Assembly: GCF_015256775.1 (NCBI RefSeq)
Contig: NZ_JABZLM010000006.1
DNA length: 64,000 nucleotides
Origin: Solobacterium sp.
GTDB taxonomy: Bacteria > Bacillota_I > Bacilli_A > Erysipelotrichales > Erysipelotrichaceae
Direction: 5' to 3' (one strand)
The notes beneath the pieces are model-generated. The model worked only from the letters and a program-made list of their open reading frames with translations. It was not told where the DNA came from and searched no databases. The position numbers were made by a program, and so were the translations under genes. Below, piece by piece: positions 2,859 through 58,122 of this stretch (position 1 is its first letter; the number at the start of each line of letters is the position of its first letter).

Positions 2859-3560
2859 TTACATTCCTTGGATATTTGCTTTTTTTATTCTGCTCATTAG
2901 TACTGGAACCATCAATAAGCAGACAATCATCGTTACTAAGTTATACCAAAGATTATAACCTAGGGAGAACGTCCACGCTGGTAAGCTTCCAGCTGCAGTG
3001 CCCTCTGCCCAGAAATACGCACCGGAAATAACCGTAGAGAAGTACTTGATGATCATTACAATCACAATACCGAAATGACCTTTTGTGCTTGTTAGGAATA
3101 GGCCTAATGCAATGACCAAGGCTGCTAATACAATGCCAGCTACTAGAGCCATTAAATTCATACCGTAAGAGTAATATACAGCAGCACATGCAGATAAACC
3201 AATTAAAGATACCACAGTTAATACAATGGGTTTGCTTGCATGTTCAAAAGGCTTAAAGAGCGAAACCATTCCAACAATACTGATTGGTAGCACGTAGTCT
3301 AATAGAATCTGTATTGGTTGAACAAAATACATTGGAAAACCTAATACAATTGTTAGTAAGAATGAAGCTAGTCCACACAGAACTCCATACTTCCAACCAA
3401 GATGATACGATGCAATCATCAGTGGAATTAACTCCAGTTCAATAGATCCACCATTTGGCATCTGTAGGAAAGGTATCATATTTCCTACCATTTTTAGCGC
3501 TACATATAACGCCATGTAGATTGCCATGAACGCAATCGTTTTAATCTGATCGTTTTTCAT
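2859..3560 (-). CDS. ECF transporter S (substrate-specific) component, thiamine or thiamine-precursor family (ThiT/YkoE-like)
   Basis: Small polytopic membrane protein directly downstream of a TPP riboswitch. Start MKNDQIK with GGAGG 9 nt upstream. The track ORF extends to 3662 but that part overlaps the riboswitch. Confidence 0.55.
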   Translation of the reverse strand: MKNDQIKTIAFMAIYMALYVALKMVGNMIPFLQMPNGGSIELELIPLMIASYHLGWKYGVLCGLASFLLTIVLGFPMYFVQPIQILLDYVLPISIVGMVSLFKPFEHASKPIVLTVVSLIGLSACAAVYYSYGMNLMALVAGIVLAALVIALGLFLTSTKGHFGIVIVMIIKYFSTVISGAYFWAEGTAAGSLPAWTFSLGYNLWYNLVTMIVCLLMVPVLMSRIKKANIQGM

Positions 3561-3574
3561 AAAAAATACACCTC

Positions 3575-3680
3575 CATTTTGAAGGCGCAAGGAATTAAAA
3601 CCTGAACTCCCTACGCTAGCTTTACCTAGATCAGGTGATAAGGGTTTTTTCTCAGCATGCATGCACCCCTGTTCACGAGT
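3575..3680 (-). promoter_or_regulatory. TPP (thiamine pyrophosphate) riboswitch, THI element
   Basis: Minus-strand sequence reads GUGAACAGGGGUGC..GCUGAGA..ACCCUUAUCACCUGAUCUAGGUAAAGCUAGCGUAGGGAGUUCAG. It has the conserved GGGGUGC, CUGAGA and ACCUGAUCU(A/G)GxUAAUxCxAGCGUAGGGA blocks. P1 closes as UGAAC/GUUCA. Confidence 0.85.
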
Positions 3681-40274: not shown

Positions 40275-40786
40275 TTATGGTTAAACAATCAGCTTAATAA
40301 CTATGCACTTTTCGGCACTGATAAGACCACAGAGTAAGACATACATCTTTCCTACCATCTACCTGCCTCAATTGAGATTCGTGACCCTCGAACCAGCAGT
40401 TTGCCTAGTTCTTTCTTCAGATTCCACCTCACGATGGAAATCCTTGAATTCGGCTCAACCTTAGGGACTACATTCCTTGGTTAGAGGTACCTTTCAACCT
40501 CCAAGATATATACCATGTCTGGCACACCAAGAAAAAACCTACAGAATCTTTCGATATACGCAAAGAAAATGCATGTGTATAAAAAGTGACCGAACCGATG
40601 GAGGTTCAAAGACATTGATGCATGTATTCGACAGATTTGAGGATACGGATTTGATTACAGAACTACTGGAAGGTATGTATACGGAATTGCACGAAAAGAA
40701 ACCTATAAAATTCGTACGAATACTGTAGGGTAAGAAAAGACGTCTTTCTCTATACTAAAATATGCCGAACGAAAGAGGGAATCAAA

Positions 40787-50530: not shown

Positions 50531-51364
50531 ATGTTAAATCAATACGGACAATTAACCTTAGAACAAACACTGTTCTATCTTGCGATTGCGATTTTACCTG
50601 CAATCTTCTTCATGATTTATATCTATCGCAATGATGATAAAGAAAAAGAACCACCACTCTTATTACTAAAATGTATTATTGGTGGTCTACTCTCTGTACC
50701 AGTCGCAATCATATTAGAGATGCTTTCTGAACAGGTAGTCTTTTATCTTTTAGAAAATGTAGTGACAGCTACACAAGTCAATTACGGTATTCTAACCGCA
50801 ATCTTTGTTGGGCTCATCGAAGAAGGCGCAAAGTTCTTCTTCCTCTATCGATTCACATGGAAAGACAAGGCATTCAATTATCGCTTTGATGGTATTGTAT
50901 ACGCTGTATTCGTATCACTTGGATTTGCGGCATTAGAAAATGTCTTCTATGTATTTAATTATGGAACAGGTGTTGCTTTACAGCGTGCACTTCTCACAAT
51001 TCCAGGACACATGAGCTTTGCGGTATACATGGGCTTATACTATGGTCATGCAAAAGTAGCTGAAGCTGTTAATAGCCCTGATGTAAAGTCACTAAACTTA
51101 AAAGCTTCTTATGCATTTGCGGTATTACTACATACAATCTTTGACGCAACACTGATGGTAGAATCCGATATCGGACTAATCTTCTTCTTTATCTTCGTTG
51201 CAATCCTAGATATCATCGTATACCGCACGATTCACTTAGAGTCCAAGAATGATATTCCTATCGTTCCACCAACAGAAGAGGATATCTACGCAGAAACCCA
51301 ATTATCACGACCATCTCCAATCGTTAAAATTACACACGATGTAAGTGAACGTGAAAAAATGTAA
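50531..51364 (+). CDS. PrsW-family intramembrane metalloprotease
   Basis: Conserved EEGAKF, FAALEN and HTIFD motifs within a polytopic membrane protein. Confidence 0.7.
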   Translation: MLNQYGQLTLEQTLFYLAIAILPAIFFMIYIYRNDDKEKEPPLLLLKCIIGGLLSVPVAIILEMLSEQVVFYLLENVVTATQVNYGILTAIFVGLIEEGAKFFFLYRFTWKDKAFNYRFDGIVYAVFVSLGFAALENVFYVFNYGTGVALQRALLTIPGHMSFAVYMGLYYGHAKVAEAVNSPDVKSLNLKASYAFAVLLHTIFDATLMVESDIGLIFFFIFVAILDIIVYRTIHLESKNDIPIVPPTEEDIYAETQLSRPSPIVKITHDVSEREKM

Positions 51365-51411
51365 GGTTTGTTGTATTATAAGGTTAACGATATTAATAAG
51401 AGGAGTAATTT

Positions 51412-52128
51412 ATGTTAAGTGATCCAACAATTGTCAAATTGATTATCATGGGCCTAGTAGGCACAAACGTTGTCTTACTTGCGGCCGTTATCTTCTTGGC
51501 ATTTAAGAAAAATACATATTATGTAGATGCGGACGGAAACGATGTAGGTACAACAAGAAAGCCACAAGTTAAGAAAGTTGTACAAGCTACACCAATCGCT
51601 CCAAAACCAGAACCAATGCAACAACCAAAGCAGAATGTAGAGGACTCACTCGCTGCGACAACAGTTCTTACTGACTTAGAAAGACCTGTTATGCCAGTAT
51701 CCCCAGCAATCAAACCAGTAAAGGTTGATTCCTTGGATACACCAATCCGCGAAAAGAATAATGATGATTCCGCAACACTATTCGAGGAAATCTTCTCTAC
51801 AACAAATCTAGATGAAGCTGATCCAAAGATTCTCGTTACAATCAAAGTTGCAGGGCAAACAAAGGACCATACAATTAGTAAATTACCATGCTTGATCGGT
51901 CGTGAAGCTGCTAGTTGTGACCTTGTCATCAATGAACCAGCAATCAGCCGTAAACATGCACGCATATTAATCGAAAGTGATACATTCTATTTAGCAGATG
52001 TTTCCGAACACAATGGAACATACCTAAATGGAATTAAACTACCACCGCTTGGTAAAGCTCGTATCCATGAGGGAGATCACATCAACCTAGGGCGTGCAGA
52101 AATTGTCATCAATCAAATTATTGACTAA
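51412..52128 (+). CDS. membrane-anchored FHA-domain protein
   Basis: N-terminal TM helix, a Pro/Lys-rich linker, and a C-terminal FHA motif (IGREAASCDLVINEPAISRKHARI...NGTYLNG). Confidence 0.7.
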   Translation: MLSDPTIVKLIIMGLVGTNVVLLAAVIFLAFKKNTYYVDADGNDVGTTRKPQVKKVVQATPIAPKPEPMQQPKQNVEDSLAATTVLTDLERPVMPVSPAIKPVKVDSLDTPIREKNNDDSATLFEEIFSTTNLDEADPKILVTIKVAGQTKDHTISKLPCLIGREAASCDLVINEPAISRKHARILIESDTFYLADVSEHNGTYLNGIKLPPLGKARIHEGDHINLGRAEIVINQIID

Positions 52129-52129
52129 A

Positions 52130-52151
52130 GATGCTTACGAGCATCTTTTTT
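52130..52151 (+). terminator. rho-independent terminator (gatgct-tacg-agcatc plus T6). Copy 1 of a duplicated 22-bp element.
   Basis: An identical 22-mer, gatgcttacgagcatctttttt, recurs at 52494-52515. Confidence 0.6.
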
Positions 52152-52218
52152 CTTCATATAAAGAGGCAGGATAACTCTATTCGAAATACCCTACCTTTTC
52201 TATGAATATTCAATTTAT

Positions 52219-52386
52219 TTAATGCTGCTTATTTTGTAATTTACGATATATAAGTATATATAAAAGAGAAAGTATGATAGTAATCAAAATAGAGAGGTCT
52301 GGCAACTTCATCTTAACTAAGAAAAAATATTGTTGTATTCCATTAATTACTGCATATATCATAAACAATTTTATGTCATTCTTCAT
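52219..52386 (-). CDS. small hydrophobic peptide (55 aa; MKNDIKLFMIYAVINGIQQYFFLVKMKLPDLSILITIILSLLYILIYRKLQNKQH)
   Basis: AAAGGGGAAG RBS 7 nt upstream of ATG. Single predicted TM helix. Lies in an AT-rich segment between the two copies of the duplicated terminator element. Too short to appear in the >=60-aa ORF track. Confidence 0.4.
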   Translation of the reverse strand: MKNDIKLFMIYAVINGIQQYFFLVKMKLPDLSILITIILSLLYILIYRKLQNKQH

Positions 52387-52493
52387 TTTTCTTCCCCTTT
52401 GTTTTATCTAATTAAATTGTATGCCTATCATGGATAAATAACCAGACTTCAAACTCTTGTTTCTAAGTTGCATAATTACTCATATTGTTCAAT

Positions 52494-52515
52494 GATGCTT
52501 ACGAGCATCTTTTTT
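52494..52515 (+). terminator. copy 2 of the duplicated terminator hairpin (gatgct-tacg-agcatc plus T6)
   Basis: Identical to 52130-52151. Confidence 0.5.
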
Positions 52516-52564
52516 ATGATTCTGTACAATAATGCTGTATGATTAACAGGTATGGAGGTTCAGT

Positions 52565-55462
52565 ATGAATTTAGAACTAAACAACAAGCTACATGGATTT
52601 GTCCTTGAACAAATCAAAGATATTGAAGACGCAAAAGGAACTTTATATATGTTCCGCCACGTTCAAACAAACGCAGAACTCTGTTGGTTAAAACGTGATG
52701 ATAAAAATAAGACCTTTGCGATTACCTTCAAAACAATCCCTGATAACGATACAGGTGTTTTCCACATTCTAGAACATAGTGTTCTAAATGGTTCAAAGAA
52801 GTATCCTGTACGTGAACCATTTGTAGAACTATTAAAGAGTAGTTTACAAACATTCTTAAATGCTTTTACGTATCCAGATAAGACAATGTATCCGGTAAGT
52901 AGTCGCAATGACAAAGACTATATGAACCTCATTTCTGTATATATGGATGCGGTATTTCAACCAGCAATCTATACGAATCCAAATATCTTCTTACAAGAAG
53001 GTTGGCATTATCAGATTCATGATGTAAATGAAGAGATGGAATATAGTGGTGTTGTACTCAATGAAATGAAGGGTGCCTTCTCCTCTGTTGATGAAACAAT
53101 CGTAGATGAACTTAATCGTATGCTATTCCCAGATAACTGCTATAAATATGTATCTGGCGGTGATCCACGTTACATCACAGATTTAACTTATGAGAAGTTT
53201 ATCGAAACACATCAGAAGTTCTATCATCCATCCAACGCTCGTATTTGGGTAGATGGTAACCTAGATATTGATGAAGTACTTCGTTTTATCCATGAAGAAT
53301 ACTTTGTTAACTATCAAAAGGAAGAGATGGATTTCGCAATTCCTATGCAGAAGGTTCTACCAGCTGTACACAATCGTATATCCTACGAAGTCAGTGAAAA
53401 TGAACCTACAGAGAATCGCTCTCATATCTCTTTTGCAAAGATTATTTCTACATACGATTCTTATGTACAAAATATCGCATGGTCTACACTATCTTCCACA
53501 CTTGTGGCCAACAATGAATCACCATTAAAGAAGGCTATCCTCGATAACAATCTCGGTGAAGATGTTGATTTAGACTTATATGATGGTATTCAACAGCCAT
53601 GGCTTGTCTTAACTATTCGTAATACAGACGCAGACAAGTATAATGCAATCCGAGAAACGTTACGCTCTGCCACAAGCGAGCTTGTAAAGAATGGACTAGA
53701 CCACGAAGAATTACACGCAACAATCAACCAGATGGAATTCCGTTATCGTGAAAGTCATGAACCAGCAGGTTTAATGTATGGACAACGCGCAATGGATAGT
53801 TGGTTATACGGTGGTGATCCAGCAGAACCACTATCTAATGGAAAGATATTTGATATCTTACGTGAAAAGATTGAACAAGGATATTTCGAGGAACTATTAT
53901 CATCCTTCTTATTGGACGAAGAACATCTAAACTCTCTTACTGTCGTGCCATCCACAACAATGGGAGCTGAACGTATCGCAGATGAAAAGAAACGTCTAGC
54001 AGATATCAAGGCTTCCAGCAAAGAGAATGTTCTAAAGTATATTGAACAAAACAAGGCATTAGACCTCTGGCAGCAGTCCTCTGACACAAAGGAACAATTA
54101 GCTACCCTACCTAAGATTCATCTTTCAGAGATTGATGAAAAACCAGAAGATTTACCACTACAAATTGAAAAAGTGCAGTCTGTTAAGACACTGGTCCACC
54201 CAGCGCAAGAATCAGGTATTGTATACCTATTCTTCTACTTCTCACTTGCAGGAATTACAATCAAGCATTTACCAGCGGTTGGTTTATTTACTGATTTACT
54301 CATGAACTTACCAACTACCAAGAAAACAGTTCGCCAGTTACAACGTGCTGTACGCAAGGACCTTGGTTCCTTAAATATTGTAACAGACGTATACTCACCA
54401 GATAATCGTTCTGATGCATGCATTCCAGTCCTTGCGGTATCCTGTTCTGTACTTGAAAGAAATATAGATAAGGTTGTCCCACTCATTTTAGAAGTAATCA
54501 AAGATACAAAGTTTACAAAGGAAGAAATCTTACCTATCCTCAAACAAGGTAACGAAGGCGCAAGACAATCCATCATCATGAATGGACACTCCTTCGCAAT
54601 GCGTCGTGTATCTGCGCACCATAGTGCAGAAGGTGTATTCCGTGAATATATCGGTGGATATGAGAATGCATTATTTAGTAAGCAGTTAGAAGATAACTAC
54701 GATGAAATGATTGATGAAGTCCTCAATGAATTTGAGATGTACCAGGAAGTATTATTCTCTAAGGATCGTCTGATTGCGAGTGTAACTGGTAATCATTTAG
54801 ATGTGGTAGAAGAATTTGTCGCTGGTATCAATCGCATTGAAGCACAGGGAAATGTTGTACACTACCCACTCTTACAAGAACCAAAAGAAGCACTTCAAAT
54901 CCCAGCAGGTATCTCCTACTCTGCTGCAGGTACTAACATTAAGTCATTCAACTTTGAATACGATCCATGCTTGCAGGTAATCGCTCATCTATTGACCTAT
55001 GATTATCTATGGACTGAAGTTCGTGTGAAAGGCAATGCGTATGGTACAGGCTTTAGTGCAAATCCAAATGGAAATATCGCCGCATACTCCTACCGTGACC
55101 CAAGTCCTCTACATTCCATTGAGGTTTACCGCGATATATACAAACGTATCAAGCAACTCGCTGAAGATGAACATACCGACTTAGCAGGATATATCATTGG
55201 AACAATTGCGGCAGCAGAGCCACTCTTAGCACCAGCTGCAAAAGTTCGACTAGCAGATATTCGCTACTTCCGTAACACCACATACGAAAACTTATGTGCT
55301 GCACGCAAAAAAATTCTCTCTATGACAAGAGAAGATCTTGCAAGATACGTAGAACTCTTTGAAAAGGCATTACAAGAGCCAACATCCTGCATTGTCGCAA
55401 ACGCAGAAACAATCGAACAATGTAAGGAAGAAGGATACACTATCCTTGATCCAATCTCTTAA
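52565..55462 (+). CDS. M16-family zinc metallopeptidase, large PreP/falcilysin-like (M16C) type
   Basis: Inverted zinc motif HILEHSVLNGS (HxxEH) plus ENE-region. 965 aa. Confidence 0.8.
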   Translation: MNLELNNKLHGFVLEQIKDIEDAKGTLYMFRHVQTNAELCWLKRDDKNKTFAITFKTIPDNDTGVFHILEHSVLNGSKKYPVREPFVELLKSSLQTFLNAFTYPDKTMYPVSSRNDKDYMNLISVYMDAVFQPAIYTNPNIFLQEGWHYQIHDVNEEMEYSGVVLNEMKGAFSSVDETIVDELNRMLFPDNCYKYVSGGDPRYITDLTYEKFIETHQKFYHPSNARIWVDGNLDIDEVLRFIHEEYFVNYQKEEMDFAIPMQKVLPAVHNRISYEVSENEPTENRSHISFAKIISTYDSYVQNIAWSTLSSTLVANNESPLKKAILDNNLGEDVDLDLYDGIQQPWLVLTIRNTDADKYNAIRETLRSATSELVKNGLDHEELHATINQMEFRYRESHEPAGLMYGQRAMDSWLYGGDPAEPLSNGKIFDILREKIEQGYFEELLSSFLLDEEHLNSLTVVPSTTMGAERIADEKKRLADIKASSKENVLKYIEQNKALDLWQQSSDTKEQLATLPKIHLSEIDEKPEDLPLQIEKVQSVKTLVHPAQESGIVYLFFYFSLAGITIKHLPAVGLFTDLLMNLPTTKKTVRQLQRAVRKDLGSLNIVTDVYSPDNRSDACIPVLAVSCSVLERNIDKVVPLILEVIKDTKFTKEEILPILKQGNEGARQSIIMNGHSFAMRRVSAHHSAEGVFREYIGGYENALFSKQLEDNYDEMIDEVLNEFEMYQEVLFSKDRLIASVTGNHLDVVEEFVAGINRIEAQGNVVHYPLLQEPKEALQIPAGISYSAAGTNIKSFNFEYDPCLQVIAHLLTYDYLWTEVRVKGNAYGTGFSANPNGNIAAYSYRDPSPLHSIEVYRDIYKRIKQLAEDEHTDLAGYIIGTIAAAEPLLAPAAKVRLADIRYFRNTTYENLCAARKKILSMTREDLARYVELFEKALQEPTSCIVANAETIEQCKEEGYTILDPIS

Positions 55463-56571: not shown

Positions 56572-56592
56572 AATAAAATGGAAGCCAAATTG

Positions 56593-57522
56593 TTATAATG
56601 TAAGGCTTCCTTTTATTTTGTTACGTAGTCTTTCTGGAAGTAATGATGAGTATTCATCTATTTCATGCATTTTCATCCAGATAATTGTCTTTTTCAGTTT
56701 TTCTAAGAATATACTATTTTCAGTGGTTTGGCACAATTCTTCCAATTTATCTGTAGCATCTTCTTTAAAATATATTGCTTTTAATATTATCTCTCCATAA
56801 AGATATAGCGAAGCATCAACATCCCACTTATCAAATTCAATCTCTCTTTGAAGAGTATGATGGTTATAATCCCATATCATTTTCTTTATGAGCAGATCTG
56901 CCTTTTTATAATCTTTATTATCGTCTTGATAAATATATTGTATTAAGGCTTGATGAATCGCGGGAGCATGTACATCTTGTAAGAGCGCCTGTTCGATATA
57001 TAGACTATAAAATAAGTAGTTAGCATTTTTACATATAGTATTGTTTTTTATCGCCAGAACAAACAGTAATGCACTGATACATATCAGATATAAATCATTG
57101 TGTGCCCAAAAAAATCCTACCAATAATAATGCGCAAATAAATATAAGTATCAGTAAAACTGTTCTTTCAAACCGGAGCAGTTTATTTTGATAAGTTTCCA
57201 GTGTGTCACTTTCTTCAATAACAGAACCGTTGAAGTCACTTGCCAATCCATCAATGGATTTATCAATCATCATCTTGTTATGGGCGAATCGAAAACAGAG
57301 GAAAATATAATTCGAGTTTTTAAAGATTAATTTTACTGTTATCGCAGAAATAAATCGTATAAATATCCAACCAATCATGATAAATGCAATCAATTGAATA
57401 TAATCAATTAGATATTCCCTATATATTCTTAGCGGCCTAGCAATATTCTCCAAATACAATACTAATAGAAAAGTTGATGTTGCTAAAACATCTAAAATAT
57501 AATATCTTTTTCTCTTCATCAT
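56593..57522 (-). CDS. hypothetical polytopic membrane protein (AT-rich islet)
   Basis: 309 aa, about 4 TM helices, and a C-terminal soluble region. No recognisable family. Strongly AT-biased codon usage. Confidence 0.45.
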   Translation of the reverse strand: MMKRKRYYILDVLATSTFLLVLYLENIARPLRIYREYLIDYIQLIAFIMIGWIFIRFISAITVKLIFKNSNYIFLCFRFAHNKMMIDKSIDGLASDFNGSVIEESDTLETYQNKLLRFERTVLLILIFICALLLVGFFWAHNDLYLICISALLFVLAIKNNTICKNANYLFYSLYIEQALLQDVHAPAIHQALIQYIYQDDNKDYKKADLLIKKMIWDYNHHTLQREIEFDKWDVDASLYLYGEIILKAIYFKEDATDKLEELCQTTENSIFLEKLKKTIIWMKMHEIDEYSSLLPERLRNKIKGSLTL

Positions 57523-57548
57523 ATTTTCCTTAGTTTAATATTAGAAAA

Positions 57549-57869
57549 TCACTTATGCTCATACATTAAAATCATTAACAGAATGATTGCTATAAAACAT
57601 CCTAAAACAAATAATATCTTTCCTTTTCTTGAGTGGAATATCTTATTTTTATTTGGATTATTCTTGATAGAAAGCATATATGTAACAATTGATATAGCCA
57701 ATAATCCAAAAGATCCAAGAAAACCAAGAAAACCAAGAATATCAAATCTTTCGTATTTACTAAAAAATGTTCCGACAGCGTAGGAAATCATCAAACTTAT
57801 AAAAGAGATAATCTCATATTTAGTGTGTTTCTTTATCTTAAATTTTTTTAGCATAAATATCCCCTTCAC
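57549..57869 (-). CDS. hypothetical small 3-TM membrane protein
   Basis: 106 aa. Contains a LGFLGFLGS repeat encoded by three tandem ccaagaaaa units (57713-57739). Confidence 0.4.
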   Translation of the reverse strand: MKGIFMLKKFKIKKHTKYEIISFISLMISYAVGTFFSKYERFDILGFLGFLGSFGLLAISIVTYMLSIKNNPNKNKIFHSRKGKILFVLGCFIAIILLMILMYEHK

Positions 57870-58122
57870 ATAATTATTCGGTGATACTAATTCTATATTT
57901 CTCTGTCAATTGAATTGTCTTTAAAATACTTGCTTATTTTTTATCACATTAATACACATTCAGTATTTTGTCAAAATTATTCATTTGCGTTATCTTTACT
58001 AAATCAGAATACTATATCCTAAATATCTCTAGCATGAATATAACAGAAGATATTTCATCAAAGCGGTTTGAAAATACCATCTTTTTCTTTATGATTATGT
58101 TAGTGAAAAAGAGGAACATCAT

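Follow-up and report, generated by a model that had tools for sequence, protein, structure and literature searches.

A strain-variable gene for a 55-residue membrane protein, inserted into a Solobacterium terminator and possibly an orphan immunity gene

Why should one bacterial terminator hairpin occur twice, a few hundred base pairs apart, with a small gene caught in between? The question is raised by positions 52,130 to 52,515 of a 64,000-nucleotide stretch of Solobacterium sp. DNA (assembly GCF_015256775.1, contig NZ_JABZLM010000006.1), which was analysed whole and is called the window below. Between the genes for an FHA-domain protein and an M16-family peptidase, both read on the plus strand, an identical 22-bp hairpin brackets a segment that encodes a 55-amino-acid (aa) hydrophobic protein on the opposite strand. 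A first-pass annotation, made from the letters alone, had likened this arrangement to small toxin or type I toxin-antitoxin loci and to bacteriocin-like peptides, or alternatively to a duplication junction where a small module was inserted. Here we show that the segment is an old insertion that is present in some strains and absent from others, and that it carries a complete gene under moderate purifying selection. Relatives of the peptide on mobile and accessory DNA are translationally coupled to a secreted protein, and on this analogy we consider it an even call that the window gene is an orphan bacteriocin-immunity-like gene. Coordinates are collected in Table 1; compared places are cited by L number and proteins by P number where they have to be told apart.

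Exact copies of the 22-mer GATGCTTACGAGCATCTTTTTT lie at 52130-52151 and 52494-52515, both on the plus strand, where 0.01 matches are expected by chance in the window and none of 100 shuffles gave two or more. No third copy was found in the window, even with up to three mismatches allowed. Both copies score as intrinsic-terminator-like, with a stem of 9 bp on the left (AAAGATGCT/AGCATCTTT) and 6 bp on the right, and the 342 bp between them are AT-rich (26% G+C, against 37% for the window), so that the picture of an AT-rich segment between two directly repeated terminator hairpins was borne out. A repeat-finding tool lengthens the repeat to 33 nt at 88% identity. However, an extension upstream into the end of the FHA-domain gene (7/11 and 15/31 positions ungapped, p ~0.03) was not significant in a gapped alignment; we set it aside as marginal and take 22 bp as the secure length of the repeat. 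No terminal inverted repeats join the inner ends of the body at 52152 and 52493, the only long inverted pair being the palindromic hairpin itself.

To what does the segment owe its two hairpins? We compared contigs encoding exactly the FHA-domain protein of the window, most of which are filled, that is, carry the insert, while a minority are empty. In the empty alleles the FHA-domain gene is followed by one hairpin and then the M16 gene, and the spacer is exactly 364 bp shorter (the 342-bp body plus one 22-bp copy), without a scar, giving an intergenic length of 73 bp as against 434-439 bp in filled alleles. For example, in the empty allele L014 and three similar places the spacer consists of the stop codon, an A, one perfect hairpin and the M16 leader. 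In the window, the stop codon of the FHA-domain gene likewise lies 1 nt upstream of the left hairpin, and the M16 leader follows directly after the right hairpin, as it does in the empty alleles. Six of the seven species representatives are also empty, and the seventh, L038, is filled and encodes a peptide 82% identical to that of the window. Thus, the 364 bp are a presence/absence polymorphism in Solobacterium with the terminator of the FHA-domain gene duplicated at its edges, and of the proposals made at first pass it is the duplication junction with an inserted small module that the empty sites, within the species and among the species representatives, have confirmed.

The insertion is old. 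Between the window and L038, silent-site divergence (dS) is 0.27 in the open reading frame (ORF) of the peptide and 0.36 in the FHA-domain and M16 genes, and 16 of 67 sites differ in the 3' untranslated region of the peptide gene. At silent sites the module has diverged roughly as far as its flanks, and was therefore present before the two lineages split. On neighbour-joining trees of each flank, filled and empty alleles are interspersed, and the left-flank and right-flank trees disagree with each other; because of this conflict, we conclude that the population recombines. The empty allele L014 falls within a group of filled ones that have the same FHA-domain protein. These observations are most simply explained by a single ancient insertion, after which precise losses between the direct repeats occurred repeatedly and homologous recombination shuffled both states. 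Thus, the 364 bp represent an old insertion into the FHA-gene terminator of a Solobacterium lineage.

The hairpin is perfect in all seven distinct empty sequences, and in filled alleles the two copies drift independently. The left hairpin, which is the intrinsic terminator of the FHA-domain gene, is retained in every filled allele seen, with full pairing in L013 and L038 (a wobble or loop change) and a 5-bp stem in L001 and L016. The right hairpin has stem-breaking point mutations in L007, L009, L010/L017 and L026-L031, and its T-run, of six T in the window, has seven in most alleles. An A-run at 52127-52129 beside the left hairpin extends the left stem to 9 bp, and the hairpin folds on both strands, so the left copy may terminate transcription in both directions. 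In the arrangement we propose, the left copy would still end the FHA-domain gene and the right copy would preserve the upstream context of the M16 gene, while the direct repeat would permit precise loss by recombination or slippage. Such precise loss fits the scattered empty alleles.

Of the ORFs in the insert, the 55-aa one alone is open in all alleles; a plus-strand ORF of 45 aa (52274-52411) was rejected, being not conserved and lost in four of six alleles. The strong ribosome-binding site reported for the minus-strand ORF at first pass is indeed present, and its Shine-Dalgarno sequence is kept in all alleles save for single-base variants. The candidate promoter farther upstream has an invariant -10 box (TACAAT) and a weak -35 box. 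Back to back with it lies a promoter-like site on the plus strand, the best-scoring motif of its kind in the segment (9-10/12 in six of seven alleles and 8/12 in L022), which faces the right hairpin and the M16 gene. Promoters here are motif matches only, and a built-in scan found no excess of promoter-like sites over shuffles in 51000-53500. Upstream of the ORF, in a region of 107 bp, the window and L038 are alike except at 6 of 107 sites.

The peptide gene also has a terminator of its own. In its 10-bp stem two G-U pairs are possible in the minus-strand RNA only, the stem is followed by CUUUAUAU (52163-52156), and the fold energy is -33.4 kcal/mol (z -6.2) on the minus strand and -23.9 on the plus strand. 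Pairing is complete along the stem in five haplotypes, and the four changes seen in it are one-sided and wobble-compatible. These changes separate the two divergent haplotypes, and each of them keeps a G-U pair on the minus strand where the plus strand would have an A-C or C-A mismatch. In these two haplotypes the stem is followed by UUUUUAUG or UUUUUGUG. The strand-specific wobble changes are modest evidence (two haplotypes, roughly 1 in 16), and point in the same direction as the ORF.

Is the ORF maintained as a protein? The exact 55-aa sequence is present on 433 contigs, and 24 protein clusters of the peptide were recovered, all of 54-55 aa save a few truncated or frameshifted variants; conservation in relatives, which the first-pass annotation had named as a check, was thus found. 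The 54-aa and 55-aa allele types differ by an in-frame 3-bp insertion or deletion (FFLVKMK versus FLFKMK or FLFNMK). Across six DNA alleles the pairwise ratio of nonsynonymous to synonymous change (dN/dS) is 0.13-0.6, excepting the closest pair, whose six differences are uninformative, and the excess of synonymous change per site is significant in five tested pairs (Fisher p 0.0007-0.025). Segregating sites number 12, 6 and 14 at codon positions 1, 2 and 3, respectively. The core of the gene is mosaic: between the window and L026 the untranslated regions are identical, and 16 differences and the indel all lie inside the ORF. Taken together, the insert is a complete minus-strand gene, with a ribosome-binding site, its own terminator and a candidate promoter, under moderate purifying selection.

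The encoded protein is predicted to be a two-helix membrane hairpin. An AlphaFold2 model from 20 aligned sequences (mean pLDDT 80) places helices at residues 2-25 and 29-54; the protein is strongly hydrophobic at about residues 30-47, and the N-terminal helix is moderately hydrophobic. The hydrophobic membrane peptide of the first-pass annotation is therefore retained, now with two predicted helices in place of a single transmembrane segment. The first helix bears an invariant polar motif, N15 G16 Q18 Q19 (NG.QQY). The sequence opens directly at a conserved helix and has neither a GG motif nor a signal-peptide cleavage site, whereas a secreted class II bacteriocin would have a double-glycine or Sec leader. 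No significant family match was found in Pfam, NCBIfam, PADLOC or PHROGs, and Rfam gave no family for the segment even at permissive thresholds, its best match being at chance level (E=0.55).

Where else does this protein occur? Close homologues (clusters at least 78% identical) lie at the junction of the FHA-domain and M16 genes in every place examined. One seemingly distant homologue, P0023 (53%), lies at this site too, but in an assembly full of broken genes, and was rejected as a probable artefact of indel errors. In the place concerned, L021 (GCA_015473145.1, contig BNJS01003634.1), every gene of the conserved neighbourhood is fragmented, which points to pervasive indel errors; clusters such as P0023 are probably not distant homologues. 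A 388-aa protein, P0026 (E=3e-4), was likewise dismissed as a spurious match to a low-complexity repeat protein. In an exhaustive profile search of 1.84 billion representative proteins, the only match outside the Solobacterium clusters was P0025 (52 aa, E=1e-11, 56% identical), and its surroundings are quite different. P0025 comes last in a run of four genes that a mobilizable element (L060) carries between a MobL relaxase and a VirD4-type coupling protein on one side and AbiH and serine recombinases on the other. The run encodes a 113-aa secreted protein, a 202-aa lipoprotein, a 256-aa protein with a Sec-type signal peptide and P0025, whose ATG overlaps the stop codon of the 256-aa gene (TAATG). 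The 202-aa lipoprotein has a CPWC motif and its best match is the PedC/BrcD disulfide isomerase of bacteriocin maturation (E=5e-6, below the curated cut-off). Directly after P0025 come a ResA-like lipoprotein (E=9e-8), a 138-aa secreted cysteine-containing protein and a 57-aa membrane protein.

L060 4116-7656 (and also L061-L063) thus holds two successive sets of a thioredoxin-like lipoprotein, a secreted protein and a small two-helix membrane protein. The 113-aa and 256-aa proteins have an identical signal peptide, and distant relatives of the 256-aa protein have this signal peptide too, attached to unrelated mature parts; to judge by these sequences, the cargo of L060 looks like a polymorphic secreted-effector system for which there is no family model. 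Two further links between the sets were tried and rejected: the 256-aa and 138-aa secreted proteins showed no paralogy, and membership of the 57-aa protein in the peptide family (31% identity in a forced alignment) was not convincing. Nor could the 107-bp region upstream of the window ORF be read as the decayed 3' end of a toxin gene: a likeness was visible by eye, but local alignment to the 3' ends of the partner genes in L064 and L060 scored below most shuffles.

A third member of the peptide family turned up in a different setting. P0030 (263 aa), a 63% identical homologue of the 256-aa protein, has its gene immediately after an agrD-like ORF (…SPVLCRGLWFEAEEPEEL…), with AgrB, a LytTR response regulator and a histidine kinase encoded opposite. 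The stop codon of its gene is overlapped (TGATG) by a 53-aa family member, MKNNSKLFIVYAIINGIQQYYFYRIHQPELAFFNCILLSILYCYLVYRFNKKQ, which is 45% identical to the window peptide. AgrD-like precursor ORFs (…SPVLCRGLWFE(A/S)EE…) are present at L064 3657-3809, L068 2004-2186 and L070 7784-7936, and a ParE/Phd toxin-antitoxin pair lies downstream of the agr-linked peptide gene. The Solobacterium contigs and those with the mobilizable element belong to a single metagenome series. Viral contigs and plasmids yielded no match to the hairpin, the junction, the putative toxin or the operon.

How might these contexts explain the gene in the window? A secreted and variable protein, disulfide helpers, quorum-sensing control, mobile DNA and a membrane protein translated in tandem together match a bacteriocin/immunity layout. 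We favour the immunity reading because the relatives sit stop/start-coupled behind the gene of a secreted protein, which is the position of an immunity gene and not that of a type I toxin or a bacteriocin. To judge from gene order, then, the peptide would protect against the secreted partner: the 55-aa protein would sit in the membrane and shield the cell from the secreted protein, or from a variant of it made by neighbouring bacteria, and the carrier cell would be protected without making the toxin itself. On this view the membrane partner of an antibacterial protein circulating in the same habitats would exist in the window as a separate copy that has expression signals of its own. The presence/absence polymorphism, the two allele types and the mosaic core of the ORF all fit such an orphan immunity gene. 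The bacteriocin link raised at first pass therefore looks probable, with the roles reversed, the peptide being the protector and not the weapon.

Several observations weigh against this interpretation. The antibacterial nature of the partner would follow from its genomic context alone: the 256-263-aa protein matches no family or solved structure in profile and sequence searches, the PDB included, and its AlphaFold2 model, built from four sequences, is unusable (pLDDT 34). Both thioredoxin-like matches score under the curated cut-offs, and they are similar to proteins of conjugation (TrbB/TraF) as well. Coupling to a secreted protein might also mean that the small protein serves in maturation or export and not in immunity. 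At the DNA level the window segment resembles the coupled copies within the ORF only (73% over 135 nt, and 84% over 50 nt in L070). A tblastn search with the two putative toxin homologues gave no match in the window or in the sampled Solobacterium sequences, the sampling being of the FHA/M16 locus only. Finally, the candidate promoter of the peptide gene is weak (8/12), some variants of the peptide are truncated (P0018, P0044), and selection constrains it far less than its neighbours, for which omega is 0.01-0.14.

These points bear on three other accounts of the gene. First, the protein could have another role in the membrane, as an export or maturation helper that was co-opted, as a factor of the entry-exclusion type belonging to mobile elements, or as a modulator of a host membrane protein. 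The overlapping stop and start codons show coupling and not function, the P0025 element carries conjugation-related genes together with the TrbB/TraF-like thioredoxin matches, and the neighbours in the window are membrane-associated (a PrsW protease and the membrane-anchored FHA-domain protein). Yet the partner has its own Sec-type signal peptide and so needs no dedicated exporter, a helper without a client makes little sense as a stand-alone, promoter-bearing and polymorphic gene, and the many strains that have identical neighbours and lack the gene indicate that it is not part of FHA/PrsW/M16 function. We therefore regard a different membrane role as unlikely.

Second, in line with the resemblance to type I loci noted at first pass, the 55-aa protein could be a membrane-damaging toxin of a toxin-antitoxin system, its mRNA repressed by a plus-strand antisense RNA ending at the right hairpin. 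Its size and its one strongly hydrophobic helix would suit such a toxin, the gene is self-contained between two terminators, loci of this kind commonly show presence/absence polymorphism, and the right hairpin could end a plus-strand RNA begun within the segment, for instance at the weak promoter-like sites at 52181-52210 (8/12 in all alleles) or 52448-52476. Promoter-like motifs are no commoner here than in shuffles, however, and no conserved antisense promoter is convincing; an RNA from the best plus-strand site would begin downstream of the likely 5' end of the mRNA and would miss it. Neither a type I toxin family (Pfam, NCBIfam) nor an Rfam antitoxin RNA was matched, and the 107-nt 5' region has no stable structure (-9.5 kcal/mol, z +0.8, no better than shuffles). 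The homologues lie in operons, translationally coupled to the gene of a secreted protein, and the invariance of NG.QQY at 45-56% overall identity suggests a specific partner over generic membrane damage. We think a toxin of this kind very unlikely, and the toxin reading of the first pass is not supported.

Third, the segment might be a neutral relic of a decayed integrative element or of illegitimate recombination, its ORF non-functional and its polymorphism a product of drift and easy deletion. The lack of a recombinase, the single site, a 22-bp direct repeat resembling attL and attR of a decayed element, the truncated or frameshifted variants (P0018, P0024, P0044) and the decay of the right hairpin in some alleles would all be in keeping with this. 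Against it, the ORF, Shine-Dalgarno sequence, -10 box and terminator have outlasted divergence great enough to saturate about 30% of neutral sites; substitution in the ORF shows a significant bias towards synonymous sites, and its indel is in frame; and the 5' region has kept its near-identity between lineages whose flanks differ by a dS of 0.36. We think a functionless relic very unlikely, to about the same degree as the toxin.

The orphan immunity gene, if it is one, must have reached the terminator by some route. Three candidates are recombination of a small circle at the hairpin, leaving a remnant resembling a cis-mobilizable element (CIME), staggered cleavage flanking the hairpin, and template switching during replication. 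If the repeat did run on into the last part of the FHA-domain gene, this would speak for an origin of the att type, but the extension is only marginally above chance. No recombinase lies next to the insert and no other copy of the insert is present in the window. The duplicated 22 bp exceed the usual target duplications of transposons in length, and a miniature inverted-repeat transposable element or insertion sequence was rejected, there being no terminal inverted repeats, one copy in the window and one site among the places examined. It is a long shot, and the least probable of the proposals made here, that the locus records an undescribed integration route by which small gene cassettes enter terminators, leave the neighbouring genes undisturbed and can be removed again by precise excision; such a route may act through staggered cleavage on either side of an intrinsic-terminator hairpin or through recombination of a small circle at the hairpin. 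Were it general, terminators would offer landing sites to a hidden stock of small accessory genes, orphan immunity genes among them.

That the two-hairpin state is instead ancestral, with a gene lying between two independent terminators and the empty alleles as the only derived state, we judge very unlikely: the age of the module, diverged about as much as its flanks, and nested empty alleles such as L014, which resemble recent losses, would agree with it, but independent terminators would not have 22 identical bases with loop and T-run included, genera farther away lack the peptide gene, the junction there being taken up by another gene or a short spacer of unrelated sequence, and the ORF is poor in G+C (24%, against 39-40% in the two flanking genes), with its only relatives on mobile or accessory DNA.

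Table 1. Features of the insertion and of its flanking genes (positions in the window)
Feature	Position	Strand	Basis and remarks
FHA-domain gene, 238 aa, membrane-anchored	51412..52128	+	ORF list; Pfam FHA E=1e-18, Yop-YscD_cpl E=3.5e-10
Left hairpin and T-run	52130..52151	+	Repeat search, terminator scoring, folds
Indel body, 342 bp	52152..52493		Alignment of 14 distinct intergenic sequences
Peptide-gene terminator hairpin, 10-bp stem AGGUAGGGUA / UAUCCUGCCU	52164..52196	-	RNA folds, haplotype comparison
55-aa small membrane protein ORF MKNDIKLFMIYAVINGIQQYFFLVKMKLPDLSILITIILSLLYILIYRKLQNKQH	52219..52386 (stop included)	-	ORF list
Shine-Dalgarno sequence AAGGGGA	52393..52399	-	Read from sequence; 7 nt from G-run to ATG
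Candidate peptide-gene promoter TGGTTA-17 nt-TACAAT	52416..52444	-	Motif match, 7/7 alleles scanned
Promoter-like site TTCA(A/C)A-17 nt-CATAAT	52448..52476	+	Motif match, 7/7 alleles scanned
Right hairpin and T-run	52494..52515	+	Repeat search, terminator scoring, allele alignment
M16-family (PreP-like) peptidase gene, 965 aa	52565..55462	+	ORF list; Pfam Peptidase_M16_C, M16C_assoc, PreP_C

The right hairpin ends 49 nt upstream of the M16 gene, whose Pfam matches were precomputed on the identical gene in related contigs and whose product is 97-98% identical over residues 1-500 to those of seven Solobacterium species representatives. The promoter-like site at 52448-52476 points to this gene, with the right hairpin directly after it and stem-broken in several filled alleles. 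Because the motif faces the M16 gene and the hairpin decays, the insert may alter M16 expression. In L003/L011 (one contig, one strain) about 107 bp are missing near the start of the M16 gene, the gene call being 858 instead of 965 aa, and the 5' region of the gene aligns as two pieces.

Across the family Erysipelotrichaceae, the junction between the FHA-domain gene and the M16 gene varies in content. In Bulleidia-like and other related genera (L040-L042, L044, L047) it holds a gene for a 570-583-aa protein (for example, L042 2097-3848) which, by eye, combines a zinc-ribbon-like CxxC pair near the N-terminus with a membrane segment and a C-terminus rich in repeats. This protein is unrelated to the peptide, and the gene was rejected as a larger form of the insert. 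L039 and L055 have a short unrelated spacer at the junction.

Three further observations concern other parts of the window. At about 56590-58120, 1-2 kb past the end of the M16 gene and downstream of the Fur and rubrerythrin genes, there is a second strain-variable region between otherwise identical neighbours; in the window and the matching parts of L001-L020 it holds genes for 309-aa and 98/101/107-aa proteins, for 251-aa and 117-aa proteins, or for a protein of about 616 aa. In a 512-bp gap between ORFs, positions 40339-40438 on the minus strand match the Rfam group II intron domains D1-D4 (57.6 bits, E=6e-9) and may be an intron fragment or an intron without an ORF. A thiamine pyrophosphate (TPP) riboswitch at 3591-3680 on the minus strand (73 bits) overlaps the annotated start of a 267-aa ORF (2859-3662), whose true start is probably further downstream.

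If the immunity reading is right, the peptide family (52-55 aa) and its 256-263-aa secreted partner would make up a small unannotated family pair, neither member having a Pfam or NCBIfam model, and a candidate bacteriocin/immunity pair on mobile DNA in human-associated Erysipelotrichaceae. The locus would also show that a gene can be inserted into a terminator with the signals of its neighbours kept and can be lost again without a scar, and Solobacterium, an oral and gut anaerobe, would offer a natural pair of filled and empty alleles for studying the effect of the 55-aa protein on competitive fitness. Automated annotation and gene-level pan-genome analyses miss such variation, the gene being short and the indel falling within "intergenic" DNA.

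How does the locus compare with known systems? Considering first the insertion, Cas1-Cas2 duplicates the CRISPR repeat when a spacer is inserted, and casposons duplicate their targets. By analogy, the insert described here lies between direct copies of a partly palindromic target of about 20-35 bp; unlike a spacer, it is ten times spacer length and a single event, with no array and no cas genes in the ORF list of the window. CIMEs and decayed integrative elements, which lack a recombinase of their own, lie at the 3' end of a gene, their DNA being bracketed by direct repeats (attL and attR). The window resembles them in that direct repeats at a host-gene terminator bracket AT-rich DNA and in that precise empty sites occur in the population. 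It differs in that the segment has 342 bp only, with no recombinase seen, no other copies and no known circular form, and in that its right arm is no more than marginally similar to the last part of the FHA-domain gene.

With regard to function, the type I toxin-antitoxin loci of Firmicutes (Fst/RNAII, TxpA/RatA, BsrG/SR4) share with the window gene a short, hydrophobic, intergenic ORF that is flanked by terminators and variably present. Unlike them, the window gene has no structured leader and no family match, and its homologues lie in operons behind a secreted protein. It is also unlike the loci of secreted class II bacteriocins, its neighbours being FHA-domain and M16 genes. A closer parallel in architecture is dysgalacticin (DysA) of Streptococcus dysgalactiae, a 220-aa class III bacteriocin exported by the Sec pathway, with an adjacent gene, dysI, for a membrane-associated immunity protein (PMC8308785). 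As with DysA and DysI, the two non-orphan members of the peptide family lie on mobile DNA, where the gene of a protein of about 220-260 aa with a Sec leader is followed by that of a small membrane protein. The likeness is one of architecture: family and structure searches showed no sequence similarity to either partner, and the window has the small gene only.

Orphan immunity genes without a cognate toxin are found in the class II loci of streptococci and lactic acid bacteria, and in the colicin and pyocin systems. The window gene differs from these in lying outside any bacteriocin locus or immunity array, as a single gene, with a candidate promoter and a terminator of its own, in a housekeeping terminator. 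Like them, it encodes a predicted small integral membrane protein with no cognate toxin at its locus, and is a stand-alone copy of the downstream partner, variably present and allelically diverse, with a mosaic core.

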